A stretch of DNA of 54,101 bases from Candidatus Aminicenantales bacterium (GCA_049696855.1 JBAVUQ010000162.1:1-54101); one strand, 5' to 3'. Positions 7,010-43,065 are shown, counted from the first letter of the stretch. The notes: generated by a model from the sequence alone, not told the origin. Numbers and translations are program-made.

Positions 7010-7110
7010 CTTCATTTTTCTGACTAAAGGTGCTCAAAGGAAGACAAGCCCTTCTCCCCTGGAAATCGGGTTTTCCCCATATGTCCAGAGGAGTGGGGAA
7101 TAGGACTCCT

Positions 7111-13106: not shown

Positions 13107-13151
13107 GGATAGTCGCCGGGGATCTGGCGCGCATTTGGCCCGGCCGGACGA

Positions 13152-13928
13152 TCACGGGCGTTCCCGCCGTTCCGTGGCCAAATGGAATAAGTAGATCAAT
13201 TTGCAGCTGATCTCGAGCGCTTCCCGGGGTTCAGCGACGGGCACATCGGTCTTGAAGTGCCCGGTCAGCCGCTCATCGAAGATCGCCAGCGGGAACCACT
13301 CCCGAAGCTTGGTGACGGCGACGTCGAAGTTCGCCGGAGCGGACGGGGTCCGCTCGGCGCCCAGGAAGCCGTAATCAAGGTGGTTCTGGAGCATCTCCGC
13401 GCGCGGATCAGAGGATCTTCTATCGTAGATCCTGACAAAGTCTTCGGATCGGAACGACTCGGCGGTGCCCTTTGTGGTGACCCGCCGCATGACCGGGAAG
13501 CCGCCTGTCAGCACCGTAGCCGGCACGTTGAGCTTCATCTTGGTGGTCGAGGTCTTTGCCTGCGTGATGCTCCGCATCCTCCCCCTCATGATCAGGAATG
13601 CGTCGCCGGCTTCAACCCTGATCTCGCCGCCTTGCCTGTCCCCGAATATCACTTCTCCTTCTCCGGATCTCGCCGTGTGCGCTCTGAAGCCGGCCGGGCG
13701 GTTTCGAAGCTCGGTATCCTTGCAGATAAAGGCCACGAGTCCGGCCTCCCTCAGCCTCCGAGCGATCGAGTCCGCCGTCTCGGCGTCGGGGGGAGAGACG
13801 ATGATCCTGGGAATCCCTCCGGCGAGCAGGAGACGCGTGTCGACGATCTCTTTGCCGACGAGGAAGGCCACCCTCTCGATCAGGTCCGCGCTGAGCGTTT
13901 TCGGTGGAGCCACGGCGACATGGACCAT
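13152..13928 (-). CDS. Hypothetical protein (258 aa)
   Basis: Long ORF with coding-like G/C third positions. It has no TM segment and no motif I recognise. Confidence 0.55.
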   Translation of the reverse strand: MVHVAVAPPKTLSADLIERVAFLVGKEIVDTRLLLAGGIPRIIVSPPDAETADSIARRLREAGLVAFICKDTELRNRPAGFRAHTARSGEGEVIFGDRQGGEIRVEAGDAFLIMRGRMRSITQAKTSTTKMKLNVPATVLTGGFPVMRRVTTKGTAESFRSEDFVRIYDRRSSDPRAEMLQNHLDYGFLGAERTPSAPANFDVAVTKLREWFPLAIFDERLTGHFKTDVPVAEPREALEISCKLIYLFHLATERRERP

Positions 13929-14062
13929 GATGGGCCAATCTTAGCATCGTTATGGAGTTCCTTCAATGAAGGCCTTTGGGGCCGCGATCATCCCGGATTT
14001 CGAGCAGCTCCTTGGCATAATTCCCCAAATCCTGCTAAGTTAGTATCCCGATAGCATAAGGC

Positions 14063-14917
14063 ATGCGAAAAATCTCGCAATCGATATATGACCGCCTGGA
14101 CAACGCGGTTTACAGCGCTCAGGGCGATGAGTGGTGGCAGCCCGATTCCGCATTCTATCAGATGAAGGTTTTCCTCAATCCCGTTCGGGTGGCCTACGCG
14201 AAAAGGAAGCTCGTCGAGGAAGCCAGGATCGATCCCAAAGCCACGGCCGCACTGGACGTCGGCTGCGGCGGGGGATTCCTGGCCGAAGAGATCGCCCGGA
14301 TGGGCTTCGATACGACCGGCGTCGATCCTTCCGCGCGGTCCGTCCAGGCGGCAGCCACCCACGCGCATGAGAACGGCTTGAATATCCAGTACCGGACGGG
14401 CACGGGTGAATCTCTCCCCTTCGAAGAGGAGTCCTTCGGCGTCGTCTTCTGCTGTGACGTGCTGGAGCATGTGCGCGACCTGCCGAGGGTCGTTTCCGAG
14501 ATCTCCCGGGTCCTGAAGCCGGGAGGCGTGTTCTGCTACGATACCTTCAACCGGACCTGGCTGAGCCGGCTGGCCGCGATCAAGATCAGCCAGGTCTGGA
14601 AGCCGTGGGCCTTCATGCCCCCGAACCTCCATGTCTGGAGGATGTTCATCAAGCCCGGCGAAATGAAATCGCTGCTCCGGCAAAACGGCCTGGAGTGGAA
14701 AGAACACCGGGGCCTTATTCCCGACATTCCCATCCCCCGGCTCCTCGGCTATCTGCGCAAGAGGGCCAGGGGCGAATGGACCTACGCCGAACTCGCCGCC
14801 AAGGTCCGGATGGTCGAAAGCCGCATCACGGCGGTCATGTACATGGGCTGTGCCATCAAAAGACGGCCGTCCGGAGCAGACACCGATCCGAAGCAGCTGG
14901 AGAAAGAATATGGATGA
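14063..14917 (+). CDS. Class I SAM-dependent methyltransferase (UbiG-like)
   Basis: SAM motif I LDVGCGGGFLAEEIARMG followed by VDPS, and motif II VVFCCDVLEHV. Confidence 0.85.
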   Translation: MRKISQSIYDRLDNAVYSAQGDEWWQPDSAFYQMKVFLNPVRVAYAKRKLVEEARIDPKATAALDVGCGGGFLAEEIARMGFDTTGVDPSARSVQAAATHAHENGLNIQYRTGTGESLPFEEESFGVVFCCDVLEHVRDLPRVVSEISRVLKPGGVFCYDTFNRTWLSRLAAIKISQVWKPWAFMPPNLHVWRMFIKPGEMKSLLRQNGLEWKEHRGLIPDIPIPRLLGYLRKRARGEWTYAELAAKVRMVESRITAVMYMGCAIKRRPSGADTDPKQLEKEYG

Positions 14918-16748
14918 CGTCCTGAAGACCGCCAAGAATTGCCGGCACTACGCGATGTGCAAGATCGATTTCCTGGGGAGCGGCGTCTGCGCCTCGGGGC
15001 TGGAAAAGCACTATGTCAGCTACTATCCGGAGGGGCGGATGGACCTCTATGCCGCCCTGGCGGAGAACAAGATCCCGATCACGGAAAAGTGCCTCGACAT
15101 CGCCGCAAGCTGCGACCTCTGCGGCAAGTGCGATTACCAGTGTTACTTTGTCACCGAGCTGCGGCCCTCCCGCGTCATGGCCGCGCTCAAGGACCTCGTC
15201 GCCGCCCACGTGCAGCGGGGAGGGACGGTCCTCAAAGCTCCGGAGGATCCGCTGCTCCGCGATATCCGGCGGATCGTCGGCGAAGAATGGGCGACGAACG
15301 ACCAGGCCGTCACCGTCACGTATTCCCATGACCCCGGCCCCCTGACGGTCGCCAAGATGCCGGCCTATGTCGTTCTGCCCAGGACCAGGGAGGAGATATC
15401 GGCGCTCCTGAAGCTCTTCAAGGCCCACCGCGTCCCCTGGGTGGTCCGCGGCAACGGTTCTCAGAATGCCGGCCTCAGCCTCTCCGAGGGGGCCGTCATC
15501 GACCTGAACCGGATGAAGGACATCGCCTTCGATGAAAAGAACTGGGCGGTCAAGGTGGGCGGCGGCGTTCCGGCCTTCGACCTCCAACGCGAGGCGGCCC
15601 GGCGCGGCTACCGCGTCAACGTCGCCGAACCGGCGGCCCTGGTGTGCTCCAACATGATCTGCTCGGGGATCTTTTCGACTTTCCTGACCGCGTACGGGAC
15701 GGCCGCGGACAATTGCGTCGACGCCGAGTTCGTGGCCAGGGACGGCTCGTTCTTCTCGCTCAGCGACAAGAACGCCCCCAACGTGTTCGCCTTCAAGCAG
15801 GCCGACCAGGAGGCCCCCGGAATCTGCACGGCCGTGAGCATGAAGCTCCATCCCGTGACCGGGGATGAGTCGGGGGTCCTCGTTCCCTTCGATTCGCTGG
15901 AAAAGGCCCTCGACTTTTCCAGGGAATGCGCCGTCCGGCGCATCGGCCTGGCCATCGGAATCCTCGGGGGCGGGTACATGTCGTCCTTCCTGGCCCCGAC
16001 GAAGAAGCTGGCCGCGGAGGTCCGGGACGTCTTCGAGAAGAAGCTGGGCATCGCCCATCTGGTCCTGGTGATCGGCGATCGCTATGCCATCCAGAGCGTC
16101 CTGGCCATGGGGCACCCGGTCTTCGATCAGCGGCTCTTCAAGGCCCTCAGCCTGGGCCTGACTTCCCTCCGATCGGCCGGGTGGCCGGATCTTCTGGGCC
16201 AGCTTTCCGCCGTCGAGCCGTTCTCTTACCTCCGGATCAAGGGCTTCGCGGAGATCGTGGAGGCGGCCGTGGCGCCGTCGGCCGCGAGCCTGGCCGCGGC
16301 GGTCGATCCGGACCTCCGTCCGTTCTTCGAGGAGGTTTTCAGCCGGCCGGAGATGACGGACCTGGTCTGGCTGAACATGTTCAGGATCCTGAGCTCGAGG
16401 ATGGGACGGGACAAGCAGTTCGCCGTGAACATCATCTACATGCCCCTCGAACGGGAGTTGATCACCGCGATGTCCGAGGGGTTCAAGCGGATCGCCGACC
16501 GCCACGGGCTTGCGAACGATCTGGGCTTCATCACGCCCCTCGACGGCGGGAAACGATGCATCCTCGAATACGATTATTACTTTGACCAGACCGATCCCGA
16601 GGAGATCTCCCGGGCCCGGCTGGCGGCGATGGACGCCGGCGGGCTGATCATGGAGTATTCGGCCAAGCTGGGCACCATCCGCTGGATCCGGCACGTCGTG
16701 AATCAGGGCTTCAGCCGCATGGAGGACCTTCTCTACGGCAAAGCTTGA
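14910..16748 (+). CDS. FAD-binding (PCMH-type) oxidoreductase with N-terminal Cys-rich Fe-S-like domain
   Basis: ATG at 14910 overlaps the methyltransferase stop by 8 nt. It has the motif CDLCGKCDYQC (CxxCxxCxxxC) and an FAD_binding_4-like segment AYVVLPRTREEISALLKLFKAHRVPWVVRGNGSQNAG. Confidence 0.8.
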   Translation: MDDVLKTAKNCRHYAMCKIDFLGSGVCASGLEKHYVSYYPEGRMDLYAALAENKIPITEKCLDIAASCDLCGKCDYQCYFVTELRPSRVMAALKDLVAAHVQRGGTVLKAPEDPLLRDIRRIVGEEWATNDQAVTVTYSHDPGPLTVAKMPAYVVLPRTREEISALLKLFKAHRVPWVVRGNGSQNAGLSLSEGAVIDLNRMKDIAFDEKNWAVKVGGGVPAFDLQREAARRGYRVNVAEPAALVCSNMICSGIFSTFLTAYGTAADNCVDAEFVARDGSFFSLSDKNAPNVFAFKQADQEAPGICTAVSMKLHPVTGDESGVLVPFDSLEKALDFSRECAVRRIGLAIGILGGGYMSSFLAPTKKLAAEVRDVFEKKLGIAHLVLVIGDRYAIQSVLAMGHPVFDQRLFKALSLGLTSLRSAGWPDLLGQLSAVEPFSYLRIKGFAEIVEAAVAPSAASLAAAVDPDLRPFFEEVFSRPEMTDLVWLNMFRILSSRMGRDKQFAVNIIYMPLERELITAMSEGFKRIADRHGLANDLGFITPLDGGKRCILEYDYYFDQTDPEEISRARLAAMDAGGLIMEYSAKLGTIRWIRHVVNQGFSRMEDLLYGKA

Positions 16749-17787: not shown

Positions 17788-18540
17788 CTAACCGCGCGGT
17801 CCCCAGGTCCAGTAATAGGCGGCGTAGGCATAAAAATGGCTCGGGCCGTGCAAGTCCCGGCCGGCGGAGACCATGAAGATCTGTCCCTTCCCGACGGACA
17901 GAAGGGCGCCAAGGTTGAAGCCGGTCTCCCCGGTCTCTCCCGGGGCTTTGGACGAATTGGCGGTGATTTCCGCGCCGAGCGTGATCCGTTTGGAAAGATC
18001 GCGCTGGGCCTCCCAGCCCACCACCCAATAGCTCTTGTTCCCCGGACCCGGATTGATCCAGTAACCGCCGCCGCCGTAGGTCGTCCACGGCCCCCAGCTC
18101 TTTTGGAGCCAGACAGGCAGGAATATCTGAACATGTCCGCTCCCCAGACCGCGGGCCGGGCTTCCGGCGGGCACCTCGATGTGCGGGAATGTCCCGATCT
18201 GAGGTCTCGAGCGGGTTTCACCGACGAACCTGACCTTGACCCCGAATTCGACGTCGCCGGGGCCGTACTGGAAGGGGAGCCCTCTCGGCTTGGCATAGGC
18301 CATCGGCATGATCAGGTGGAGCATGACGTTCGTGACAGCCCCATAATTGACCTCGATATGCGGGAGAGTGCCCGAAACATCATTGCGGGTGAAGAAGTGC
18401 TGGGAGGCGAGGTAGAGCTCCCAATTGCGGAGGTTGAGGGGAACAGGATCATCCGTGAAGAAAGGAGGCCCTGCCCAGAGGGCGGAGGAAAGGGCGGCCG
18501 CGAAAAAGAGCCCCGATAGGAGCTTCGACGCCATTTTCAT
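17788..18540 (-). CDS. Outer-membrane beta-barrel protein (MetA-pathway/phenol-degradation-like transporter family, from memory)
   Basis: Signal peptide MKMASKLLSGLFFAAALSSALWA, alternating aromatic/glycine strands, and a C-terminus ending in YYWTWGPRG. Confidence 0.6.
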   Translation of the reverse strand: MKMASKLLSGLFFAAALSSALWAGPPFFTDDPVPLNLRNWELYLASQHFFTRNDVSGTLPHIEVNYGAVTNVMLHLIMPMAYAKPRGLPFQYGPGDVEFGVKVRFVGETRSRPQIGTFPHIEVPAGSPARGLGSGHVQIFLPVWLQKSWGPWTTYGGGGYWINPGPGNKSYWVVGWEAQRDLSKRITLGAEITANSSKAPGETGETGFNLGALLSVGKGQIFMVSAGRDLHGPSHFYAYAAYYWTWGPRG

Positions 18541-18635
18541 CGGATTGTTTCCCCCCGCCACGATTATAGGCGACCCAAGCCGTCTGGTCAAAGGCCGCAG
18601 CGTTCAGAATCCGTTTCGGATCGGGGTCGGGCTTA

Positions 18636-20935: not shown

Positions 20936-22060
20936 CTACTTCCCGTCCTTCAAATAGAATCCCGCCACTTTAAGCGCCATGGCCGAGGCGTCGATATCCG
21001 AGCGGTTCGCCAGGACGATGACCGTGAGCCCGTCGGCCGTGAAACGCTCGATCGCCGTCCGGAAGCCCACCGTCTCCCCGTAGTGCCACATCCGGGGATG
21101 GCCCTGCCAAGCGTTGAGGAACCAGCCGAAGCCGTAATCGGCCGGCTCGCCGTCGGGCCCGGTCGGCCCCTTGCCCGGGACGCGGACGGGGGTCAGGGCC
21201 GGCCCCATCTCTTCCTCGGTGAGCAGGAGGCGGCGCCGGAGGGATTCGTCCCAGATGGAGAGGTCGTAAAGCGACGAATAGACGCCCCCGTCGCCGAGGG
21301 TCGCCGACGTGGGGCTCTGGTCGGTGAAGCGCCACCGGCCGTCCTCCTCCGTGTAGCCGAAGGCGCGGTCGGAGACTTTCGTCCGGCCCCGGACGAAGGC
21401 CACGGTGTTGTCCATCTTCAGCGGGGCGAAGATGCGCTCGCGGAGGAAGGCGGGGAAGGGCAGGCCCGAGACCTTCTCGACGATGAGCCCGAGCAGGACA
21501 TAGCCCGAGTTGCTGTAGCGCCAGTGGGCCCCCGGCGCGAACCAGCCGGCTTTCTGGCCTTTGAGAAGCTCGAGCACCCCGGCGTCGTCGATCTGCGCCT
21601 GTTCGACGGGAACGGAAGGGTCCGCCGGAGGCATCAGATCCTCGTAATCGGGAAGTCCCGAGGTGTGGTTGAGAAGGTGGCGGACGGTGATGGCGCGGCC
21701 GTATTCCGGGAAACCGGGCAAAAGACCGGACAGGCTGTCTTCGTAACGGAGCTTGCCGTCGCGCACGAGCAGCATCACGGCCGCCGCGGTGAACTGCTTG
21801 GTGACCGAAGCCAGGCGGAAGGCCGTCCGGCCGTCGATCGGACGCATGGCCTGAAGGTCCCCGACGCCGCGCCTGCCGAGATAGGCGACTTTTCCGCCGG
21901 CGATCACCAGGATCCCCGCCCCGGGCTCGCGCTCGGAGCCGATGCGGGCCAGGAGCGCGTCGGCCAGCCTGTTGGGCTTGTCCGCGGCCCCGGCCGGCCG
22001 GCCCGCGACGAGGAGCGGCAGGGCCAGCATGAGGAGAACTTGACCCATGGACATGTCCAT
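20936..22060 (-). CDS. Serine hydrolase of the class C beta-lactamase/PBP family
   Basis: The start is placed at MDMSMGQVLLMLALPLL (signal peptide). It has SxxK in SVTKQF and YxN in YSNSGY. The ORF-track upstream extension overlaps the preceding gene. Confidence 0.85.
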   Translation of the reverse strand: MDMSMGQVLLMLALPLLVAGRPAGAADKPNRLADALLARIGSEREPGAGILVIAGGKVAYLGRRGVGDLQAMRPIDGRTAFRLASVTKQFTAAAVMLLVRDGKLRYEDSLSGLLPGFPEYGRAITVRHLLNHTSGLPDYEDLMPPADPSVPVEQAQIDDAGVLELLKGQKAGWFAPGAHWRYSNSGYVLLGLIVEKVSGLPFPAFLRERIFAPLKMDNTVAFVRGRTKVSDRAFGYTEEDGRWRFTDQSPTSATLGDGGVYSSLYDLSIWDESLRRRLLLTEEEMGPALTPVRVPGKGPTGPDGEPADYGFGWFLNAWQGHPRMWHYGETVGFRTAIERFTADGLTVIVLANRSDIDASAMALKVAGFYLKDGK

Positions 22061-22115
22061 CTCGAGCGCATCGTAGACCAGAGGCGCGTCGAATTCAAGG
22101 CCTGGCCCTTCGAGG

Positions 22116-24269
22116 TCAGATGCGGAGCAGGTAAGAGACCTTGAGGGTGATCGAGTAGCCGCCGACCCGGACGAAGAACTCGTTCCGCTCGCTCTTCTTG
22201 AGCGCGAGCTGGACGACGTTGCCGGCCCCGAAATAGTACCCGACCAGGAAATCGAGGCTGTATTGCTTCTCCCGGGTTTCGCCGAAGTAGCGCGTGTTGA
22301 GGAACAGGCTCCGGGTGAGCTGGTAATGGAGGGCCGTCTCATAGGTCAGGCCGTCGAAGACCTCGGTTCCGCTGAGGTCCGAGGTCTGCCGGATCCAGCC
22401 TCCCTGGACCGACCACTCGAAGTTGGAGCGCGGCCGCAGCACCAGCTGACCCTCGATGTTCGTCTCGGCGCCGGGGACGACGGCCGTGTATTCCTCGTTG
22501 TAGACGCCCCGCTTTTCCCAGCCGGCCTCGACATTGACCTCTTTGAAAAAGCCTCCGCGATCCCAGCTGAGGTCAAGAAAGTAGCCCCGGGTCTTGATGT
22601 CGTCCGGCGTCCAGACAAGCTTATCGTCGACGTCGAGGACCTGGTACTTGCTCCGGCCGAGCTGAATTCCGCCGTGGAAATCGATGCGGTTGAAGAGCTC
22701 GGAGAAGACCATCAGCTCCACGGTTTCGCCGGTGGCGTTGCCGTAGGAATCCTGGCGGGCCACCCCGCCGACGTCGAAGCTGAAGCGCTTGAAGAGCCCC
22801 TTGTTGTAGCGCCAGGCGTGGCCGACCATGAGGTCGAAGGATTGGATGTCCTTCTGGTCGAGGTAGCCGGTGCTGATGTCGACGTTGTCCTCGATCCTCT
22901 GGAAGCCTCCCATGACCTGCAGGCCCGCGTCCGGCTCCCGCTGGAAGCCGAGCTGATAGATGCCGTTGCGGGAGTTGGGCACGCCCTCGTTGAAGGTGAA
23001 GGCGCCCATGCCCTGGATATAGTAAAAGTCCTTGAAATTGAAATTGAAGTCGACGGCCACGTTCTGGTTGCGGGCGTCGCCGTCGCGGACTCCGGCGTAA
23101 TAGACCCCGACCTGCGAGTTCTTGAGGATGTCCTTCTGGACGCGGAAAACGCCGAAATAGGAGTCGCGCGGATCCTCGTCCGTGCCGACGTCGACCTTGT
23201 TGATCGCCCCGAGGATGCCGAAGCCGAAGCCGCCGGTCTTGCCCGAGATTTTGGCCGCGGCCCGGGGATTCCGGATGCGGCGGGAGTAGAACAGGCTGAC
23301 GCCGCCTTCGTCGTATTCGTCGTTCTCCCCCAGCGTGAAATAGCGGCTGCCCTCGGTGAAGAAGGGCCGATGCTCCTGAAGGTAGTTCTCGTACGGCGAG
23401 AGCTGATAGATGAACGGGTCGGATTCGACCTCGCTGAAGTCGGGGCTGGCCGTGACGTCGAGATAGAGGTTGGGCTTGATGCCCCACTTGGCGTCGAGGC
23501 CGGCCGCGGCCTTGGTGTCCGTCTCGCGGCCCTCCGCGGCGTCGAATTCGGACGTTCGGACGCCCGCATAAGGGAAGAACTCGAGGTTGTAGCCCGGCCT
23601 GAGGCCGCTCAGGCCCCGGAGCTCGCCGCTCTGTTGAAGCTCGGGCAGGTCGCGCTTGACGTCGGTCCAAAAGTCCGTCTCGTTGAGGCGGTTGATGTAG
23701 CGCTCGAAGTTGACGCCCCAGACGGCGAGCTTCTTGGCCGAGAAGCGGAGCGATTTGAAGGGGATGGCCATCTCGGCGCTCCAGCCGTCCGGGCGAATGA
23801 CGGCCTCGGACTTCCAGATCGTCTCGACGGAGTTCTTCTGGACGCCCCTGGGATTGACCTCGAATTCGATGCTCGTCCGCTTGTCGTTGTAGGCGTCGAG
23901 GATGAGCTTGATCGAGTCGTTGTTCTCGTACTCGTTGCGCGGCGTCAGCTCGGCCCAGATCTTGCGGGGCTCCGAATCCTTCATGAGAAAGGCGAAATAG
24001 AGATAGTCCTGGTCAAAGGCCGCCCAGACGAACGTCTCTTCGGAAGCCTTGACGCCGTTAATGGGATCGTACTGGGTGAAGTCGTCGACGGGCTTGATCG
24101 CCTTCCAGCAGGCGTCGTCGATGTAGCCGTCGATCCTCGGCGGCGCCGTGACGACCGGGCGCACATCGAGGACCTTGAGCGGCTCCTGCGCGGCGAGCGG
24201 GGCGGCGAGGAGGGCGAAGAGCGCGGGGACGAGCAGTCCGGTCGATGCGCGGTGTCGGCGGTGCGGCAT
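22116..24269 (-). CDS. CBM9/DOMON-like domain protein with large barrel-like C-terminal region (DUF5916-like)
   Basis: In-frame ATG at 24269 gives a signal peptide (LLVPALFALLAAPLAAQ). The N-domain IDGYIDDACWKAIKPVDDFTQYDP..YLYFAFLMKDSEP is CBM9-like, and the remainder is rich in alternating beta-strand patterns, ending in LKVSYLLRI. Confidence 0.8.
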   Translation of the reverse strand: MPHRRHRASTGLLVPALFALLAAPLAAQEPLKVLDVRPVVTAPPRIDGYIDDACWKAIKPVDDFTQYDPINGVKASEETFVWAAFDQDYLYFAFLMKDSEPRKIWAELTPRNEYENNDSIKLILDAYNDKRTSIEFEVNPRGVQKNSVETIWKSEAVIRPDGWSAEMAIPFKSLRFSAKKLAVWGVNFERYINRLNETDFWTDVKRDLPELQQSGELRGLSGLRPGYNLEFFPYAGVRTSEFDAAEGRETDTKAAAGLDAKWGIKPNLYLDVTASPDFSEVESDPFIYQLSPYENYLQEHRPFFTEGSRYFTLGENDEYDEGGVSLFYSRRIRNPRAAAKISGKTGGFGFGILGAINKVDVGTDEDPRDSYFGVFRVQKDILKNSQVGVYYAGVRDGDARNQNVAVDFNFNFKDFYYIQGMGAFTFNEGVPNSRNGIYQLGFQREPDAGLQVMGGFQRIEDNVDISTGYLDQKDIQSFDLMVGHAWRYNKGLFKRFSFDVGGVARQDSYGNATGETVELMVFSELFNRIDFHGGIQLGRSKYQVLDVDDKLVWTPDDIKTRGYFLDLSWDRGGFFKEVNVEAGWEKRGVYNEEYTAVVPGAETNIEGQLVLRPRSNFEWSVQGGWIRQTSDLSGTEVFDGLTYETALHYQLTRSLFLNTRYFGETREKQYSLDFLVGYYFGAGNVVQLALKKSERNEFFVRVGGYSITLKVSYLLRI

Positions 24270-24363
24270 TCTGCGGGCTCCTAAAGGCACGATTGTACAT
24301 CCTTTTGACGCGAGATGGCCGGATTTCTTCCCGTAGAAAAGCCGGGGGAGGACCGCCGATCGC

Positions 24364-25425
24364 CTACATCCGGCCGGCCGCAGGACTGCCGGCTGGGCCC
24401 GCGGGACGGTCCCCCGCGCTTCCCTGCGGGTGGCAGGAATAGCAGGCGGGGGAACTGTACGAGTATCCGGTGACGTCCCTGTGATGGCTGTCCGTCGACG
24501 CCTTCTCGTGGCATCCGAGGCAGTTGAAGACCCGGAAATCGCTCGTCTGATGGCATTCGGAACAGGCCAGCCCCGAGTGCCTCCCGGACCGGATGGGGAA
24601 GGGATGGTCGAAATTCGCGCCCGACCAGCCGGTCGCGGATGTCCCGTGGCATGACGGGCAATCGGTCGGGAACCCGGAGGCCCGGTGGTTGGGATCGGTC
24701 GTGCCGCTGTAATCGGCGAGGTGGCAGGACACGCATTCCGTCGATGTGCCCTGGTAGACGCCGTTCTTGTGGCAGTCCGAACAGAGGGCCGTCTTGTGCC
24801 GGCCCTGAAGAGCGAAGCCGGTGTGCGCGATCGACGCGTCCGACCAGCTTCGCTGGGAGTGGCATGACGGACATGTCGTCGGGAAGCCGGCCTGGAAGTG
24901 GTTCGGGTCCTGGGCCCCCCGGTAATCGGCTTCGTGGCATCCGAAGCAATCCGTCGGGCGGGCCGAGAAGCCGGCGCTCCCGTGGCAGGCCTCGCAGTCG
25001 AGGGTCCGATGGATGCCCTCGAGCCGGTAGCCCACGTTCGTTTCGTGGCTCCAGAGTGCCGGATCGACCTTTTTCCAGGATTGGGGCGTATGACAGTCGG
25101 CGCAGCGCGTGCCGAGGCGGAGGGAGTAGCGGTCGTCCTGGCGCCGCTCCCAGTGGCAGACCTCGCAGTCGGTCGGCGTGCCTTCGAAGACCAGGTTGAT
25201 GTGGCACTCCCGGCAGTCCAGAGTCCGGTGCTTGCCGACGAGCGGGAAGTTGGTCCGGTCATGGGATTCGATCGTTCCCTGCCGGCCGATCCGGGAGGGC
25301 TTGGCCGCTGCTCCGGCTTTTTCCTGCCCCGTGCCCGGTCCGGCCCCGAGGACGAGAAGGATCGGGAGGATGAGCGCTCCGGCCATGGCCATGGCCGGAG
25401 CGGATTTCGTTCGGATGCGGGTCAT
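24364..25425 (-). CDS. Secreted dodecahaem c-type cytochrome (paired-CxxCH type)
   Basis: Signal peptide plus 12 CxxCH motifs counted (CRECH, CEVCH, CADCH, CEACH, CFGCH, CPSCH, CSDCH, CVSCH, CPSCH, CSECH, CLGCH, CYSCH). Confidence 0.9.
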   Translation of the reverse strand: MTRIRTKSAPAMAMAGALILPILLVLGAGPGTGQEKAGAAAKPSRIGRQGTIESHDRTNFPLVGKHRTLDCRECHINLVFEGTPTDCEVCHWERRQDDRYSLRLGTRCADCHTPQSWKKVDPALWSHETNVGYRLEGIHRTLDCEACHGSAGFSARPTDCFGCHEADYRGAQDPNHFQAGFPTTCPSCHSQRSWSDASIAHTGFALQGRHKTALCSDCHKNGVYQGTSTECVSCHLADYSGTTDPNHRASGFPTDCPSCHGTSATGWSGANFDHPFPIRSGRHSGLACSECHQTSDFRVFNCLGCHEKASTDSHHRDVTGYSYSSPACYSCHPQGSAGDRPAGPAGSPAAGRM

Positions 25426-25432
25426 GGCGTCC

Positions 25433-26731
25433 TCACCGGCTCCTGTAGATCAGCCGGACGAACAGAAAGTGCTCGTTATCGCCGGAGTGAAGGAATCCGC
25501 CGTACTCGATCGAGGCCGAGAGCTCCCGGCCGAGCCGGATGAGGGTCCCGAGCGCGACATTCCGATAGTCGGCGATGGTGATGGGCAGGGGTTCCCCCGT
25601 GCCCGGATCGAACCGCAGCCCCCGGAACGTGTTCGAGAAGCTGGCGTTCAACGAGAAACGCCCCAGATCCTTGGTCAGCGAGACATAATAGGAATCGGAT
25701 TCGGACAGGTCGCCGCGGTTGAGGGCGTAGTTCCCGACGACGGTCAGGCCCGGCATCAGGAAGTTCCAAACGGAGGCGCCGAAGCGCCAGGTGTGGTTGA
25801 CGATGCCGAGGTCGTTCTGCCGGCTTTCCTGGCGGGCCACGGAGAGCCGCAGCCCGCGGACCGGCTTGAGACTGAACCGGACCCCGTAATAGCTCGAATA
25901 ATAGAACCGCTCGACGTCCTGGTTGAACAGCGTCGGGTCCTGGGACGCTTCGATGAGGTAGCGGTGGAAATCGAGCCCCTTGCCGGAGCTGTAGCTCGCG
26001 GTCACGTCGGCCTTCGAGCCGAGGTCGAGGCGGATATTCCCGAACAGCCGGGACAGGCGGTTCGTTCCGGCGACATGGCGGCCGAGCTCGTACTCGGCGT
26101 CGCCGTACAGGACCAGGATCCGGCGCACCGGGAGGAACAGGGTCCCGTAGGCGAACCGGCGCTCGACGCTGCCGTCGAACATCAGCTGGCTTACGGTCAA
26201 GCCGGCCGTCCGTCCCTGAGGTCCGAGCCAGCGGACGAAGGCGCCGGCCTTATAATATTTCGAATCCAGCCGGGCGATGTACGGCGTCGATTCGAGACCG
26301 CCGAAGGCGCCGACAAGAAAGTCGCGTCCGAGCTTGATCCCGGCCATCCCGCCGAGGAGCGCGCCGATCCCCGCGGTATCGTAAAGGTTCATCTGGCCGA
26401 GCGACAGATAGAACCGCGAGCCCGGCTTGTCGAACGTCAGGCGGGCGCTGTAGAGGATGAGCTGGTTGGTCGTCCGGTCCCGGATGCCGACCCTGTCGCG
26501 GGCGTCCAGATCCAGGGTCCAGCCCTGTCCCGGAGGATCGATCAAGACGAACTTGACCCGGGCCGAGACCTGATTGGAGAAGATCCCGTCGGAGTAGCGC
26601 GAGCCGTTCCAGTCGAGATAGACGGTCTCTTTTTGATAGAAGGAGGATGCGGGGTATTGGGCGGGCAGCCGTGTCGCGGAGAGAAGGAGCCCCGCCGCGA
26701 CGAGGAGCCAGGCCGCTATCGCGCGTCGCAC
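25433..26731 (-). CDS. Predicted outer-membrane beta-barrel (porin-like) protein
   Basis: Signal peptide MRRAIAAWLLVAAGLLLSATRLPAQ, no Cys, and repeated amphipathic strands with Y/F/G-rich turns. It lies 2 nt after one cytochrome gene and 7 nt before the other. Confidence 0.65.
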   Translation of the reverse strand: MRRAIAAWLLVAAGLLLSATRLPAQYPASSFYQKETVYLDWNGSRYSDGIFSNQVSARVKFVLIDPPGQGWTLDLDARDRVGIRDRTTNQLILYSARLTFDKPGSRFYLSLGQMNLYDTAGIGALLGGMAGIKLGRDFLVGAFGGLESTPYIARLDSKYYKAGAFVRWLGPQGRTAGLTVSQLMFDGSVERRFAYGTLFLPVRRILVLYGDAEYELGRHVAGTNRLSRLFGNIRLDLGSKADVTASYSSGKGLDFHRYLIEASQDPTLFNQDVERFYYSSYYGVRFSLKPVRGLRLSVARQESRQNDLGIVNHTWRFGASVWNFLMPGLTVVGNYALNRGDLSESDSYYVSLTKDLGRFSLNASFSNTFRGLRFDPGTGEPLPITIADYRNVALGTLIRLGRELSASIEYGGFLHSGDNEHFLFVRLIYRSR

Positions 26732-26733
26732 GA

Positions 26734-27306
26734 TCAGATCCCCTCCGTCCGCCGCCCGACGGACCAGCTGTCCTGGTCATGGCACGACAAGCAGAGATCC
26801 TGTTTGCCGGGATGAGGCGAGGTATGACAGCCCTTGCAGCCCGCGACCTTGAGAAGATAGGACCGGCCGTATTTCCTCGGCAGGACGTTGGCCGGCGCAT
26901 GGCAGGTGTCGCAGGATTTGACCTTGAGATGGGCGCCCTGGAGGTCCGCGCCGGTCTCGGCATGGTCGAAATCCGCGGGATCCAGGTTGAGGAGGTCGGC
27001 CTGCCGGCCCTGATGCTCGGCGTGACAGATGCCGCAGTCCTCGGCCTTATCGCGGTGGAAGCCCCGAGGGGCGGCGATCCGGGAGGCGATTTCTGTATGG
27101 CAGGCCAGGCACTTGGCTGGGCCTGTCTTGCCGGGGGCGACGTGGCAGGCCGAGCAATCGCCCTCTCCTGGCTTGGCCGCATGCGAGGCGCTGAGCGGGC
27201 CGGGCATCTCCTGGGCGGCCCCGGACCCGCGGGCGACAGGGGAGAGGACCAGGGCCAGGATCACGCCCAGGCCGGCGAGCGGGAGGATCGAGCTCTGGCT
27301 TGCCAT
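26734..27306 (-). CDS. Secreted hexahaem c-type cytochrome
   Basis: 6 CxxCH motifs (CSACH, CLACH, CGICH, CDTCH, CKGCH, CLSCH). The start is set at the second ATG (27306) because the promoter candidate's -10 box ends only 2 nt upstream of the first ATG (27324). Confidence 0.85.
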   Translation of the reverse strand: MASQSSILPLAGLGVILALVLSPVARGSGAAQEMPGPLSASHAAKPGEGDCSACHVAPGKTGPAKCLACHTEIASRIAAPRGFHRDKAEDCGICHAEHQGRQADLLNLDPADFDHAETGADLQGAHLKVKSCDTCHAPANVLPRKYGRSYLLKVAGCKGCHTSPHPGKQDLCLSCHDQDSWSVGRRTEGI

Positions 27307-27326
27307 AAATCCTACTATGTCCATAT

Positions 27327-27355
27327 ATCCTATCTATATAATAGGAACCTGTCAA
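27327..27355 (-). promoter_or_regulatory. Candidate sigma70-type promoter of the cytochrome operon (TTGACA-17 nt-TAGGAT)
   Basis: On the minus strand, TTGACA at 27355-27350 and TAGGAT at 27332-27327. A short palindrome TCCTAT-N7-ATAGGA overlaps it. Confidence 0.45.
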
Positions 27356-27479: not shown

Positions 27480-28799
27480 ATGGCCAAAATACTGCTCTTG
27501 GATTTCACCCAGACGGACAAAGACCGGCTGGTCTCCGAAAAGTACGACGTGGAGCTGCGGCAGACCGGCTGGATGACAGGCCTGGACAATCCCCTCGACC
27601 TGCCCTACGACAGCGAGATCGTTTTCTACCAGATCGGAGGCGAGACCGCGGCCGTCCGGCCCGATCTCCACGCCGGCGTCCACGAGACGCTCATGGAACG
27701 GGCCCGCGCGGGGACCCGGGTCGTCTGCTTCATCGGTGACGGCGAGGTGTCCCGGCTGACCAACATCGTCGGCCCCGTGGATGGGCTCCAGGCCCTGGAA
27801 AGCGCCCGGCCGGACGCGGTCGTCTTCAATCCGAGGGCCATCTTTCATGTCCCCTTCGAGCGCTTCAAACCCGACATCGCCAAGGCCTTCCGTCTCCTGC
27901 CCGAAACATTCGGGGACGGCGTCTGGGAAAAAGAATCCTCGGTCAACGGCAAGTTCGAGTTCCTGGCCAAGACGACCGACGGCGCGCCCGTGGCCATGCT
28001 CATCCGGAAGGGCCGGGGCTCACTCCTGCTCCTGCCTTCGTTCGGGCCGAAGAACGTCGACATCGTCGATCACATCCTCAAGGACAAGCTGCCGCTTGCG
28101 CCCGAGATCGTCGCCGAGGCCCCCGTGGGCTGGCTCGAAGCCGACGATTATGCCTTCCCCGAGCTCAAGGCCCTGATGGCCAAGCGGGACGACGAAAAGC
28201 GGAAGTTCGCGGAGATCCTGGACGACTACGACAGGCAGATCAAGGACCTGAAGACGGGCGGCCAGGAGGAATTCCACCGCCTGCTCAACGGCGAAGGCGC
28301 GGCCCTCAAGAAGGCCGTCGTCAACACGTTCCGCTACCTCGGCTGGGGCAGGGTCGTGGACGTCGACCAGTACTGGAAGAACACGATCCGGAACAAGGAA
28401 GAGGACGCCTGGGTCATCGACCCCGCCGACATGCCTGTCGAAGCCGGCCTGCGCAAGGGCGAGCTGGTCATCCTCCTGGCCCGCGGCGGCAAGAACTGGG
28501 CGACCGACGACGAGTGCGCCCTCCTTCAGAAATACAAAGGCCGCCGGATGCAGGAGTTCGACAATACGCGCATGAAGGCCGTCCTCGTCGGCAACTATTT
28601 CTCCTCGGCCGAGGCCAAGTCCCGGCCGAACCCCTTCTCGGCCGCCCAGATCGAAGAGGCCCAGAAAGACGGCAACGGGCTCCTCACGTCGTATGAGCTC
28701 TTCCGGGCCATCAAGGCCGAGAAGGAGAACCGCATCTCCAAGGACGCGATCCGGGACCAGATCAAGCTCAAGACCGGCCTGATCACCTTCGACATCTGA
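27480..28799 (+). CDS. Orphan hypothetical protein (439 aa) with central coiled coil and possible degenerate PD-(D/E)xK-like C-terminal region
   Basis: ATG follows AAGGAG. The N-terminal KILLLDF-type alpha/beta start is followed by a charged helix (KRDDEKRKFAEILDDYDRQIKDLK). The C-terminal pattern is FRYLGWGRVVDVD..EEDAWVID..GELVILLARGGKNW. Confidence 0.7.
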   Translation: MAKILLLDFTQTDKDRLVSEKYDVELRQTGWMTGLDNPLDLPYDSEIVFYQIGGETAAVRPDLHAGVHETLMERARAGTRVVCFIGDGEVSRLTNIVGPVDGLQALESARPDAVVFNPRAIFHVPFERFKPDIAKAFRLLPETFGDGVWEKESSVNGKFEFLAKTTDGAPVAMLIRKGRGSLLLLPSFGPKNVDIVDHILKDKLPLAPEIVAEAPVGWLEADDYAFPELKALMAKRDDEKRKFAEILDDYDRQIKDLKTGGQEEFHRLLNGEGAALKKAVVNTFRYLGWGRVVDVDQYWKNTIRNKEEDAWVIDPADMPVEAGLRKGELVILLARGGKNWATDDECALLQKYKGRRMQEFDNTRMKAVLVGNYFSSAEAKSRPNPFSAAQIEEAQKDGNGLLTSYELFRAIKAEKENRISKDAIRDQIKLKTGLITFDI

Positions 28800-34098: not shown

Positions 34099-34782
34099 AT
34101 GGCCGACCAGTTCCGCGAAGCCGAGGCGACATTCTCGCTCCTGCGCGAAAAATTCAAGGACAAAAGGATCTCGCCGCAGGAGTTCGCCGATTCCCTGAAG
34201 CAGCTCCGCATCAAGGACGAAGAGGGGCGCTTCTGGGTGATCGGGGCGCAGAGCGGCAAGTGGTACGCCTTCGAGAACGGCGAGTGGGTCGAGGCCAAGC
34301 CTCCGTCCCAGATGGAAAAGAAAGCGATCTGCATCGCCTGCGGGTTCGAGAATGACCTCGAGGCCGAATCCTGCGCCCGCTGCGGCAGCCGAGGCGACGA
34401 ATCCGCGCCGGAAGCGCTGGCCGCCCGTGACGGGGCGGGGCCCGCGGCGGCCCTCGAAGCGACCCCGGCGCGGGCCGGTTCGGTGACCACCCTCCGCTCC
34501 GTCGACATCGCCTCCTTCCTGTGGTTCTTCGGAGTGCTCGGCCTCTTTGCCGGGATCCTTTTCGGCCTGCTCGCCGGCGCGACCGGTCTCTTCTCAGGCT
34601 TCGTCGCCCGCCTGCCGGCGTTCTTCGCCGACCACCGGGGGGACCTTTTGGGCGGACTCGCCTTCTCCGTGGCCGGCGGGATCCTGGGCTTCGCGATCGG
34701 CGCCGGGACGGGAGCGGCCGCGGCCGTCGTCTCGAACGGGATCCTGTCGCTCATCGGCGGAGTCAGGCTCCGCCGCTCCTGA
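34099..34782 (+). CDS. GYF_2-like/zinc-ribbon protein with C-terminal glycine-rich TM region
   Basis: RFWVIGAQSGKWYAFENGEWVEAKP (GYF_2-like), a zinc ribbon CIACG-x11-CARCG, and two Gly-rich hydrophobic helices at the C-terminus. Confidence 0.65.
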   Translation: MADQFREAEATFSLLREKFKDKRISPQEFADSLKQLRIKDEEGRFWVIGAQSGKWYAFENGEWVEAKPPSQMEKKAICIACGFENDLEAESCARCGSRGDESAPEALAARDGAGPAAALEATPARAGSVTTLRSVDIASFLWFFGVLGLFAGILFGLLAGATGLFSGFVARLPAFFADHRGDLLGGLAFSVAGGILGFAIGAGTGAAAAVVSNGILSLIGGVRLRRS

Positions 34783-37054
34783 GCTTCGCGAGTCCCCAGG
34801 CGATCTGTCCGAGCGAGAGTGATTCGTCGTTGGGCGAATAGGCCAACGGCCGGAACACCCGGAATCCTTTGGCCCCAAGCCGCCTCTCCGTGCTTTCGAG
34901 AAGCCGCCTGTTGAGAAAGACCCCTCCGGCGAGCGAGACATCCTCCGTCCCGCGGAACCGCCGGGCCCTCTCCGCGACGCGGACGATGAGCTCGGCCAGG
35001 GAATCGTGGAACTTCGCCGATACGATCTTCACGGGCACGCCCTCCTCGACGTCGCGGACGAGGGCGCGGACGAGGGGCGCGAACGAGACCTCGATCGGGC
35101 GGCCGGGTCCCGCCTCGGTCAAGTCGACCGGATAGCGGCCGCGAGTGGCCCGGTCGGCGGCGGCCTCGAAGCGCATGGCCGCCTCGGCCTCGAATTCGAG
35201 ACGCTCGGGCGCCGTCCCGGCGATGAACGACACGGCGTCGAAGAGACGGCCGCAGCTCGACGTGAGAGGACTGCGGAGGCCGCTCCGGCTCATCTGGAGA
35301 ACGGCGGCGCGGCGCGAGCGCCCGATCCGGCGGAGGGCCGCGAGGTCGGGGATCGTTCCGCCGAACGCTTTATCGAGCCAAGCCAGGGCCATCCGCCACG
35401 GCTCGCGCGCCGCGAGGTCGCCGCCGGGGAGGGGCACCGGCTCGAACCGGGCGAAGCGCTCGAAGTCTCGATAATCGGCCAGCAGGAACTCCCCGCCCCA
35501 GGCCGTCCCGTCCTCGCCGTAGCCGTACCCGTCGAGGGCCACACCCAGGACGCGCCGCCGCGGCTCATGCCCGTGCTCGAGGAGCGGGGCCAGGACGTGG
35601 GCGTGGTGATGCTGGACGCGATAGTGGGGGAGGCCCATCCGGGAGGCATACCGGGTCGTCCGGAAATCGGGGTGCAGGTCCGAGACGACGGCTTCGGGGC
35701 GGGCGTCGAAGAGCCGGAGGAGATGGGCCAGGGTCTCCTCGAAATAGCCGAAGTTCCTGTAGTCGTCGAGGTCGCCGAGGAACTGGCTGGTGACGACGTA
35801 GCCGTTCTTGTAGAGGGAGATGGTGTCCTTGAGCTCGCCTCCGAGGGCGACGAGGACGCGCTCGGACCGGAGCGCCTCCGGAACGGGCTGCGGGTAGGGG
35901 ACATAGCCGCGGGCCCGGCGGACGAAGAGGGGGCGGCCCGCGACGACCTTGACGACCGAGTCGTCGGCCCGCATCGCGATCGGGCGGTTGTGGCTCAGCA
36001 CGGCCCGGCAAAGTCCGCGGACGCCCTCCCGCTCCTCCTTGATGATCGGGGCGTCCTTGGCGTTGGAGCTCGTGGCCACGATGAGATCGAGGCGCTCGAG
36101 GAGGAGGCGGTGGAGGGGCGTGTAGGGCAGCATGAAGCCGATCTCGTCGAGGCCGGGCGCGATGAGCGGGATGTCCCGCTTCTTCCTGAGGAGGACGATC
36201 GGCCGCCGCGGCGAGAGCAGGAGCTCGCGCTCGGCCGGCGAAACGACGGCGAAGCGCCGGACGACCGCGAGATCGCGGGCCATCAGGGCGAGGGGCTTCG
36301 TCCGGCGGGCCTTGGTCCGGCGCAGGCGGGCGACGGCCGGCGCGTTGAACGGGTCGCAGACCAGGTGAAAGCCGCCGAGCCCCTTGACGGCCAGGACCTG
36401 TCCGGAGCGGATAAGGGCCACGGCCTCGGGGATGTCGCCGCGGAGCCTGCGGCCCGAGCGGGCGTCGACGAGAGTCAGGCGCGGCCCGCAGACCGGGCAG
36501 GCGATCGGCTGGGCGTGGTGGCGCCGGTCGAGGGGGTCCTCGTATTCGCGGCGGCAGTCCGGGCACATCGTGAAGCCGGCCATGGTCGTCCGCGAGCGGT
36601 CATAGGGCAGGCCGCGGACGATGGTGTAGCGCGGGCCGCAGTTGGTGCAATTGGTGAAGGCGTAGCGGTAGCGGCGCTCTCCCGGGGTCTCGATCTCCCT
36701 GGCGCAGTCGGGGCAGGTGGCGATGTCGGGCGAGATGAAGACGAAGCCGGCGCGATCGCGTGTCTCGCGGATCTCGAAGCCGGAGAGGCCCTCGACCGGC
36801 GCCGGGCGGAGGTCGAGCTTTTCGATGACGGCGAGAGGGGGCAGGCCGGCCCGCAGGGCGGCGGGGAACTCTTCGCGGACGACCCGGAACGGCCCCTCGA
36901 CATGGATCTCGACGCCGGAACCGGCGTTCTCGACCCAGCCGTCGAGACCGAGCTTCCGGGCCAGGCGGTACACGCAGGGCCGGAAGCCGACGCCCTGGAC
37001 GACGCCGAACACCGTGAGACGGGCGGCCGATCGGCGTCCGGTCGGGGCGGTCAT
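34763..37054 (-). CDS. hypF: [NiFe]-hydrogenase maturation carbamoyltransferase HypF
   Basis: 763 aa with an N-terminal acylphosphatase-like domain (VFGVVQGVGFRP), paired CxxC zinc fingers (CPDC..CTNCGPR; CPDC..CPVCGP), a YrdC-like domain and a Kae1-like C-terminal domain. Confidence 0.95.
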   Translation of the reverse strand: MTAPTGRRSAARLTVFGVVQGVGFRPCVYRLARKLGLDGWVENAGSGVEIHVEGPFRVVREEFPAALRAGLPPLAVIEKLDLRPAPVEGLSGFEIRETRDRAGFVFISPDIATCPDCAREIETPGERRYRYAFTNCTNCGPRYTIVRGLPYDRSRTTMAGFTMCPDCRREYEDPLDRRHHAQPIACPVCGPRLTLVDARSGRRLRGDIPEAVALIRSGQVLAVKGLGGFHLVCDPFNAPAVARLRRTKARRTKPLALMARDLAVVRRFAVVSPAERELLLSPRRPIVLLRKKRDIPLIAPGLDEIGFMLPYTPLHRLLLERLDLIVATSSNAKDAPIIKEEREGVRGLCRAVLSHNRPIAMRADDSVVKVVAGRPLFVRRARGYVPYPQPVPEALRSERVLVALGGELKDTISLYKNGYVVTSQFLGDLDDYRNFGYFEETLAHLLRLFDARPEAVVSDLHPDFRTTRYASRMGLPHYRVQHHHAHVLAPLLEHGHEPRRRVLGVALDGYGYGEDGTAWGGEFLLADYRDFERFARFEPVPLPGGDLAAREPWRMALAWLDKAFGGTIPDLAALRRIGRSRRAAVLQMSRSGLRSPLTSSCGRLFDAVSFIAGTAPERLEFEAEAAMRFEAAADRATRGRYPVDLTEAGPGRPIEVSFAPLVRALVRDVEEGVPVKIVSAKFHDSLAELIVRVAERARRFRGTEDVSLAGGVFLNRRLLESTERRLGAKGFRVFRPLAYSPNDESLSLGQIAWGLAKLRSGGA

Positions 37055-43053: not shown

Positions 43054-43065
43054 GGCGTCCTTCCC

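Follow-up and report, generated by a model that had tools for sequence, protein, structure and literature searches.

The locus described here raises the question of whether bacteria usually described as fermenters encode a route by which electrons can cross the outer membrane. The Aminicenantes (OP8) are abundant and uncultured in anoxic sediments, aquifers, peat, and digesters, and the window analysed, a 54,101-nucleotide (54-kb) stretch of DNA from a Candidatus Aminicenantales bacterium (GCA_049696855.1 JBAVUQ010000162.1:1-54101), contains at 20936-27355 five co-directional minus-strand genes, separated, according to the open reading frame (ORF) listing and counts, by intergenic gaps of 2, 7, 94, and 55 nt. 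In order of transcription, these encode a hexahaem c-type cytochrome (cyt6; 26734-27306, 190 aa, ATG start), an outer-membrane β-barrel protein (25433-26731, 432 aa, GTG start), a dodecahaem c-type cytochrome (cyt12; 24364-25425, 353 aa), a DUF5916 protein with a signal peptide (22116-24269, 717 aa), and a secreted serine hydrolase of β-lactamase fold (20936-22060, 374 aa). A recount gave the same gaps, and the same 6 and 12 CxxCH motifs in the two secreted cytochromes, as the first-pass annotation of the locus. The sequence comparisons and structural models presented here suggest that the first three genes (24364-27306, minus strand) probably encode a trans-outer-membrane electron conduit of the porin-cytochrome kind, resembling a short form of the system designated PCC3.

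The predicted structure of the 432-aa protein identifies it as an outer-membrane β-barrel belonging to an unannotated family. It has a signal peptide (...LPA/QYP) and 0 Cys residues, and its AlphaFold2 model, generated from a 24-sequence alignment (A1), is a 22-strand β-barrel with a mean predicted local distance difference test score (pLDDT) of 80.3, in which turns of only 2-6 residues on the periplasmic side alternate with longer loops. A Foldseek comparison of the model with the PDB returned outer-membrane barrels only, the top matches being the 24-strand ushers FimD/PapC and the OprD/Occ porins (E ∼1e-10), and the earlier description of the protein as a Cys-free barrel agrees with both the Cys count and the predicted fold. 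No Pfam or NCBIfam family scores above its cut-off with this protein, and the A1 profile matches no PDB chain at E up to 10, which indicates that there is no sequence-detectable similarity to solved chains, including MtrB. The 258 word-filtered homologues are all designated "hypothetical protein" and come from Aminicenantes/Acidobacteriota metagenome genomes, and an exhaustive hidden Markov model search of 1.84 billion cluster representatives retrieved no more than 227 proteins (E up to 1e-3); the family is confined to proteins from metagenomes, mostly of Aminicenantes. Conservation within the barrel is strongest in two segments, NLYDTAGIG (aa 115-123, loop L3) and GLDFHRYLIEASQDP... (aa 252-278, 27 residues, loop L7). 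Both loops are predicted to face outward, L7, which contains the nearly invariant His256, being modelled with low confidence (pLDDT about 47-52). Such strong conservation is atypical of exposed loops and suggests that L3 and L7 may contribute to a protein-protein interface.

The association of the barrel with the cytochromes is apparent from its gene neighbourhoods. One genome per species was scanned for the barrel, giving 68 loci (designated here by L or P numbers), and the neighbouring genes were identified by tblastn and ORF analysis. The loci are nearly all from genomes labelled Aminicenantes, Aminicenantia, or Acidobacteriota, five of which have two loci each. A multihaem cytochrome gene is found directly downstream of the barrel gene in 62 of the 68 loci, the other 6 being at contig ends or truncated; one is directly upstream in 57 loci, and both sides are occupied in 53. 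The cytochrome-barrel-cytochrome order is kept down to 36-40% barrel identity, the gap between the barrel gene and the downstream cytochrome gene has a median of 10 nt, and all-versus-all clustering of the ORFs within ±10 kb identifies no gene besides those of the barrel and the cytochromes that is conserved throughout. The arrangement by which porin-cytochrome systems are recognized in general, a barrel gene adjoining a gene for an exported multihaem cytochrome, is present in the window as it is in those 62 loci. Gene order in relatives and the barrel fold had been named in advance as points on which the proposal of a conduit could fail; the order is kept in dozens of species, and neither point went against it. 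Judged from these sequences, the three-gene unit is a conserved module of the porin-cytochrome type, evidently under purifying selection.

The hexahaem gene is missing in L016, on a contig of 1.95 Mb, and in L048, and the barrel and a cyt12-type cytochrome persist in both; in L048, the genes for a molybdenum enzyme, the barrel, and a 15-haem cytochrome overlap stop to start. A very remote two-gene version, L069 (4.29-Mb contig, local GC 44%), encodes a barrel of 444 aa with a faint Porin_4 match and a single 15-haem cytochrome that has a cyt6-like N terminus and cyt12-like modules and whose gene overlaps the barrel gene by 4 nt. L076 likewise has a cytochrome with a cyt12-like C-terminal module, encoded by a gene that overlaps the barrel gene. 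Remote relatives of the barrel thus adjoin multihaem cytochromes as well, with profile E-values of 2e-18, 1e-27, 3e-11, and 3e-14. Taken together, the loci without cyt6 and the two-gene relatives indicate that the invariant core of the module is the barrel and a cyt12-type cytochrome.

No cytochrome gene other than these two occurs in the window. Both proteins have Sec signal peptides and neither has a lipobox. cyt6 contains 12 Cys and 12 His (32 aa per haem) and cyt12 contains 24 Cys and 24 His (29 aa per haem), with every Cys lying within a CxxCH motif. Because this corresponds to exactly two His per haem with no spare Cys, the composition fits all-bis-His ligation, the pattern expected of electron-wire cytochromes. 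cyt6 matches the Pfam families Cytochrome_C7/Paired_CXXCH_1, and its family has an N-terminal signature, PGPLSxxH...CxxCH; the upstream cytochromes of remote relatives share this opening in the form SPGxLSxxH. A 6-haem homologue is found upstream of the barrel in 44 loci, and in about ten more distant loci the upstream cytochrome has 23/24 haems and corresponds to a hexahaem protein whose N- and C-terminal parts are separated by six cyt12-like trihaem repeats. From this comparison, cyt6 appears to be the short form of a periplasmic multihaem cytochrome. It scores 16.4 bits with the NCBIfam model TIGR04257 (nanowire_3heme), for which the cut-off is 40, and its matches in a sequence search of the PDB, 3oue and 1rwj, are not significant (E 0.07-0.17).

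cyt12, which matches Pfam Cytochrom_CIII (1.6e-12), is composed of four trihaem modules of 71-77 aa each (∼73 aa), encoded on the minus strand at 25030-25248 (module 1, aa 60-132), 24817-25029 (module 2, aa 133-203), 24598-24816 (module 3, aa 204-276), and 24367-24597 (module 4 and the C-terminal tail, aa 277-353). Modules 2 and 3 contain the first and second copies of ADY...DPNH...GFPT..CPSCH; the two tandem copies of CxxCH-x-ADY-x-G-xx-DPNH-xxx-GFPT-x-CPSCH that had been pointed out earlier are thus present and form part of a four-fold trihaem module. In the cyt12 family, the N terminus following the signal peptide is conserved (SHDxTNFPLxGKHR), and the terminal module (...GYSYSSxxCYxCHP) is kept even in remote two-gene relatives (L076). 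Haem counts in the downstream family are 9, 12, 15, 18, 21, 24, 27, or 36, a multiple of 3 in 54 of the 57 complete genes, with ∼2.0-2.3 His per haem. The earlier observation that the 12-haem protein has no lipobox cysteine holds for cyt12 and also for 54 of the 62 downstream homologues, in which no Cys precedes the first CxxCH, the remaining cases being non-canonical. At the DNA level, L061 has a 219-nt in-frame tandem repeat (13055-15386, 10.6 copies, 96% identity) and L055 a 222-nt tandem repeat (14030-15122, 4.9 copies, 83% identity), and the main difference between the protein of the window and that of its closest relative, P0279/L017, is one extra copy of module 3 (window 24598-24816), which brings the haems to 15. 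The sequences thus indicate that the downstream cytochrome grows by in-frame tandem duplication of the trihaem module and that module gain is recent; there is no DNA-level tandem repeat detectable in the cyt12 gene of the window, so its own modules appear to be old and diverged. There is no match of cyt12 to TIGR04257 in NCBIfam, and its best match in a PDB sequence search, a flavocytochrome c3 at E 0.005, is not significant. Membership in the c7-type trihaem polymers (GSU1996 family) or in HmcA was considered and rejected on the basis of model scores and PDB searches.

The relatives with long upstream cytochromes differ in a second component. Every such locus also encodes a membrane protein of ∼285-310 aa (IMP, for inner-membrane protein) with about five hydrophobic helices, an SGxxG motif, and two W-x3-H-x13-H motifs, seen for example at L061:6697-7569 and L053:14053-14901; it has no Pfam family and only a faint match to Ferric_reduct. 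The gene occurs only together with a long upstream cytochrome and is found, with all of the motifs, in 11 related loci (L041, L043, L045, L050, L053, L055, L060-L062, L067, and L071) and in the remote relatives L072 and L074. When the count is confined to loci flanked by 5 kb or more on each side, it is present in 8 of 8 of the long type versus 0 of 29 of the short type (Fisher p = 2.6e-8, shared ancestry being ignored). Remote members of the barrel family have clusters of a like kind, which combine the IMP with a 59-haem cytochrome and the barrel (L074), with an FeS-flavoprotein, 20-haem and 40-haem cytochromes, and the barrel (L072), or with a 21-haem cytochrome, the barrel, an FeS-flavoprotein, and a 27-haem cytochrome (L071). 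A tblastn search of the 54-kb window found no IMP homologue, and the operon of the window is the short form, with the hexahaem cytochrome and without the IMP.

These features make the nearest described system look like PCC3, rather than OmaB/OmbB/OmcB of Geobacter, and the window operon like a short form of it. PCC3 was predicted from the genomes of Sideroxydans lithotrophicus ES-1, Leptothrix cholodnii SP-6, and other Proteobacteria, and is composed of a porin, a periplasmic cytochrome built from repeats, and a further cytochrome of very large size (He et al. 2017, Front Microbiol 8:1584, PMC5566968). A hallmark of PCC3 and PCC4 is an inner-membrane protein of ∼300 aa that has five helices, SGxxG on transmembrane helix 4, and two W-x3-H-x13-H motifs and is proposed to bind two b haems; the L. 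cholodnii PCC3 has a porin predicted to have 22 strands and a periplasmic cytochrome with 24 haems in repeats of about 66 aa (PMC5566968). The window likewise has a porin and two repeat-built multihaem cytochromes, with 29-32 aa per haem as compared with 26-30 in PCC3, and its barrel, modelled with 22 strands, agrees with that of L. cholodnii in this respect, although many PCC3 porins are predicted to be much larger, with up to 42. The long-form relatives are closer still, having a 23/24-haem upstream cytochrome together with the IMP, which at ∼290 aa and ∼5 transmembrane helices carries the hallmark motifs. Unlike PCC3, the window operon has no inner-membrane protein, and its cytochromes contain 6 and 12 haems as compared with PCC3 medians of 21 (periplasmic) and 34 (extracellular); the numbers in relatives reach 24 upstream, 36 downstream, and 59 in L074. 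The hosts also differ, being Aminicenantes (Acidobacteriota) here and Proteobacteria for PCC3.

In the MtrAB, MtoAB, PioAB, and MtrCAB systems of Shewanella and Fe(II) oxidisers, as in the mechanism proposed below, a rod-like, all-bis-His multihaem cytochrome is sheathed by a large β-barrel, and the two-gene cytochrome and barrel variants found here (L016, L048, L069, and L076) parallel MtoAB and PioAB. However, the barrel is modelled with 22 strands as opposed to 26 in the MtrB type, the cytochromes are polymers of trihaem modules as opposed to the decahaems of the Mtr system, the barrel has no match to MtrB_PioB (PF11854, TIGR03509) in Pfam or NCBIfam, and the model for the OmcA/MtrC family gives 20.7 bits against a cut-off of 209. 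A fused cytochrome-porin of the Cyc2 type was rejected, since a barrel without Cys has no N-terminal CxxCH. The porin-multihaem clusters EET1-EET4 of peat Terriglobia and Verrucomicrobiota (Fiorito et al. 2026 preprint, 10.64898/2026.05.27.727921) are similar in being sequence-divergent but syntenic clusters in uncultured Acidobacteriota that were identified by similar reasoning and are read as serving extracellular electron transfer. They are from other lineages (Terriglobales, UBA7540, and Bryobacterales, with no Aminicenantes), and their cytochromes are described as being of other types (OmcE-, MtrC-, MtrA-, or OwcA-like, with 8-13 haems).

In the mechanism that we propose, the three proteins of the triad would all be exported by Sec, and the 22-strand barrel would reside in the outer membrane as the sheath of a rod-like, all-bis-His multihaem cytochrome. 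The sheathed protein would most likely be the cyt12-family member, because no other cytochrome invariably accompanies the barrel, and its haems would be accessible at both membrane faces, as are those of MtrA in MtrB; the smallest downstream cytochromes, with 9 haems, are about the size of MtrA. cyt6 would dock on the periplasmic side and receive electrons either from soluble donors in the periplasm or from a quinol dehydrogenase of the membrane whose gene lies elsewhere. In the long-form relatives, cyt6 extended by six trihaem modules (23/24 haems) could, with the IMP as a putative dihaem-b protein, constitute a wire from the inner to the outer membrane; since the window form has neither the long cytochrome nor the IMP, diffusion probably provides its input step. 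The copy number of the ∼73-aa trihaem module, four in this case, would set the length of the outer cytochrome, and the likely role of the system would be to dispose of electrons onto acceptors that are insoluble or of high molecular weight, such as humic matter or Fe(III)/Mn(IV) minerals. An alternative topology, by analogy with Pcc and PCC3, would have cyt6 inside and cyt12 wholly outside, the two meeting within the barrel.

Several groups of genes near related loci encode possible redox partners. A molybdenum hydroxylase, consisting of a large subunit (MoCoBD_1/2) exported by twin-arginine translocation (TAT) and a 2Fe-2S small subunit, is encoded directly upstream on the same strand in 10 loci (for example L029:6863-9016, L038:615-1142, and L048:170-790); in L048, the locus without a hexahaem gene, it is this enzyme's gene that overlaps the start of the barrel gene. 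The enzyme is a possible periplasmic electron donor. In L007 (12365-13755), a short-type locus, the 12-haem gene is followed by genes for a 5-haem cytochrome and a cytochrome b561 (Ni_hydr_CYTB) membrane subunit, a pair that is a candidate for the conduit's quinol dehydrogenase. In about 10 loci (including L071:7806-9236, L045:3923-5266, and L052:2386-3861), the long-type cluster contains or adjoins a gene for a membrane-anchored protein that combines a zinc ribbon and a 4Fe-4S dicluster with a pyridine-nucleotide-disulphide-oxidoreductase domain, and in L055 and L060-L062 this gene fills the gap between the barrel and the downstream cytochrome. The molybdenum hydroxylase, the L007 pair, and the 4Fe-4S/flavoprotein of the long type would fit an outward flow of electrons from substrate oxidation.

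The extent of the conduit and its relationship to the Geobacter systems need to be considered together. The first-pass annotation proposed a porin-cytochrome conduit of the type described for Geobacter sulfurreducens (OmaB/OmbB/OmcB and OmaC/OmbC/OmcC; Liu et al. 2014; Shi et al. 2014, PMC4245776), cyt6 corresponding to OmaB, the barrel to OmbB, and cyt12 to OmcB, extended by a co-transcribed DUF5916/CBM9(DOMON)-like protein and perhaps by the hydrolase. The architecture does agree, with adjacent genes for a periplasmic multihaem cytochrome, a porin-like protein of similar size, and a 12-haem cytochrome, and with paralogous clusters in one genome, as in the five genomes here that have two loci. 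What differs is the gene order, which is cytochrome-porin-cytochrome here and porin-cytochrome-cytochrome (ombB-omaB-omcB) in Geobacter; the number of haems in the periplasmic partner, 6 as compared with 8; the second cytochrome, which is a lipoprotein in OmcB but has no lipobox in cyt12 or in most of its family; and the absence of an OrfR/OrfS-type regulator gene beside the triad of the window. It is PCC3-type hallmarks, instead, that appear in the relatives, so that the earlier comparison with Geobacter stands as regards architecture only. With regard to the extension, the 717-aa protein matches DUF5916 (PF19313, 1.4e-21, 77.3 bits versus a cut-off of 22.6), over profile positions 4-95 of 572 only, and has no PDB relative by sequence search; its supposed CBM9/DOMON-like N-terminal domain matches CBM9_1 (PF06452) with 19.0 bits, below the Pfam cut-off of 23.4, and no evidence for a haem-binding DOMON was found. 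The 374-aa protein has SVTK and YSN motifs, as expected for the SxxK/YxN serine hydrolase originally described, matches Beta-lactamase (PF00144, 4e-66), and among NCBIfam models is best matched by D-aminopeptidase/AmpH-like families, far under the equivalog cut-offs. The DUF5916 gene is co-directional with the triad, 94 nt downstream of it, with no clear terminator ahead of it, and in 14 related loci remains no more than a few kb away from the triad, which would favour its inclusion; it has its own AGGAG ribosome-binding site. It occurs in 14 of the 68 loci, and the β-lactamase-fold gene in 13, all in the closest clade (barrel identity at least 64%), and none of the 54 more distant loci has the DUF5916 gene; in five of the 14 (L005, L006, L009, L014, and L018), 2-4.5 kb of unrelated genes, among them genes for an esterase-like 600-aa protein and BlaI/BlaR-like genes, separate it from the cytochrome gene. 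This restriction to one clade and the unrelated insertions indicate that the two genes are neighbours by descent, and from their distribution both are judged to be lineage-specific neighbours and not part of the conduit; the notion of a DUF5916/CBM9-like extension is thus not sustained, and the Geobacter-type reading with that extension is quite improbable.

Two other readings accept the triad as a unit but give it a different function. Porin-cytochrome conduits are reversible in principle, as for Mtr, and the same machine could therefore work inward, taking up electrons from extracellular Fe(II), reduced minerals or humics, or partner cells, as has been proposed for PCC3, MtoAB, and PioAB. 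Studies based on FeGenie have suggested iron oxidation genes (cyc2) in Aminicenantes, and PCC3, found among Fe(II) oxidisers, was modelled there as a pathway of uptake (PMC5566968). The context in the window, in contrast, is that of an organotroph or fermenter (GH130, a Na+/solute symporter, pyruvate:ferredoxin oxidoreductase, and HypF) and contains nothing that points to autotrophy or to a chain with a high-potential acceptor; the molybdenum hydroxylase upstream in 10 relatives, fused into the operon in L048, fits outward flow; and all of the haems look bis-His, which is typical of low-potential wires but is not diagnostic. Electron uptake as the physiological direction is therefore unlikely. 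A reading without any transfer across the membrane would have the barrel as an ordinary substrate channel and the cytochromes as periplasmic carriers or reductases for a soluble compound, and the lack of a lipid anchor or recognizable surface-export signal in both cytochromes, like the occurrence of remote barrel relatives that have no adjacent cytochrome and of one with a faint Porin_4 match, is in keeping with it. It would leave unexplained the coupling of the barrel to a cyt12-type cytochrome over a very wide divergence, often with overlapping stop and start codons. Moreover, there is no evident catalytic, five-coordinate haem site, the number of His being twice that of haems; the 22 strands, very short loops, and conserved "outer" loops are unlike those of diffusion porins with 14-18 strands; and the 24-59-haem cytochromes beside the relatives make sense as wires but not as soluble carriers. 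A function as a simple channel accordingly seems very unlikely to us.

The preferred interpretation, an outward-directed, PCC3-like conduit, has weaknesses of its own. The likeness to PCC3 and to the Geobacter Pcc is one of architecture and published descriptions, as opposed to sequence comparison, and PCC3 is itself a bioinformatic proposal. The association between the IMP and the long cytochrome, in which phylogeny was ignored, may also be weaker than its p value suggests. Which cytochrome is most likely to lie within the barrel is judged from the presence and absence of genes, and the AlphaFold2 model of cyt12 (42-sequence alignment) has a pLDDT of 45.8 and an unusable fold. No secretion system or inner-membrane partner was found in the 54-kb window, and neither cytochrome family has a lipobox, which makes surface exposure and the source of electrons less certain. 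Finally, adjacent cytochromes are lacking in L077, one of the barrel relatives that carry an AMIN-like extension at the N terminus (a visual assignment; a Pfam scan of one such protein gave no domain), and in P0275, indicating that the wider barrel superfamily is not exclusively linked to cytochromes.

A more speculative extension of the conduit model, which we regard as doubtful, is that the system is a length-tunable "haem ruler" in which amplification of the 219-bp module sets the reach (9-36 haems outside and 6-24 inside), the short form being a distinct mode with direct input from periplasmic enzymes. Cytochrome reach could then differ even between near-identical strains, and the hexahaem protein would be an adaptor fed by periplasmic enzymes, such as the TAT-exported molybdenum hydroxylases, bypassing the quinone pool and the inner membrane. 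If this were true, periplasmic substrate oxidation would be wired straight to extracellular acceptors in presumed fermenters.

Some details of gene calling and expression in the operon should be noted. A sigma-70-like promoter candidate, TTGACA-17-TAGGAT (27327-27355, minus strand), matches 10 of 12 consensus positions and is located upstream of the cyt6 gene, within the 173 bp between that gene and its divergently transcribed neighbour. The site reported earlier is therefore present, but it is a consensus match only (3 such promoter-like sites were found versus 0.7 expected), and its −10 element TAGGAT may instead be a ribosome-binding site, since it overlaps a possible AGGA for an alternative ATG at 27324. 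The start of cyt6 at 27306 is favoured by the N termini of homologues, in which this ATG is conserved. A 1048-aa ORF at 22116-25262 (minus strand) was rejected as a high-GC artefact of the real 717-aa gene: the DUF5916 frame stays open upstream through the cytochrome gene, but homologue alignments and the AGGAG support a start at 24269. Long, spurious antisense ORFs extend across the whole operon region, in which Rfam and tRNA scans found nothing.

Divergent from the operon, at 27480-28799 (plus strand), is a gene for a 439-aa protein with no Pfam match, whose homologues are the immediate upstream neighbours of the triad in 16 related loci; one also adjoins the barrel gene in L016, where the hexahaem gene is lost. 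The window further encodes a Na+/solute symporter, a GH130 protein, PilZ, a patatin, a metallo-β-lactamase-fold protein, HypF, the hydrogenase maturation factor (34763-37054, minus strand), and a fragment of pyruvate:ferredoxin oxidoreductase (41606-43519, minus strand), together with an IS4-like transposase (DUF4372 and DDE_Tnp_1; 38819-40030, plus strand). The only Rfam/ARAGORN match in the window is a tRNA-Arg(CCT) at 6935-7010 (plus strand). A CHASE2-adenylate/guanylate cyclase (2216-4324, plus strand) and a mechanosensitive channel with a cyclic-nucleotide-binding domain (5218-6834, plus strand) may constitute a signalling pair based on cyclic nucleotide monophosphates. A 267-aa secreted protein encoded at 17788-18591 (minus strand), which has no Pfam match, an alternating-strand character, and an aromatic-rich tail, may be another small outer-membrane barrel.

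The porin-cytochrome conduit is already known as a kind of system, and its nearest type, PCC3, is known only from prediction. The aspects that appear to be new are the lineage, a barrel family that lacks annotation, a hexahaem form in which the IMP is missing, the cytochromes that are not lipoproteins, lengths quantised in units of 3 haems, and the strict coupling of the long wire to the IMP. A full-text literature search found no description of this cluster in Aminicenantes, the iron link being limited to FeGenie matches to cyc2. Because Pfam and NCBIfam lack a model for the barrel and the only name given to the cytochromes is "cytochrome c3 family," annotation tools may miss the system. The all-or-none link between the long cytochrome and the IMP and the 3-haem quantisation of length offer testable design rules for haem wires, and the data, by analogy, would tie the idea of PCC3 to a much wider set of lineages. 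A conserved conduit of this kind would allow Aminicenantes to respire Fe(III)/Mn(IV) minerals or humics, or to take up electrons, and would change the way in which their role in carbon and metal cycling is modelled.

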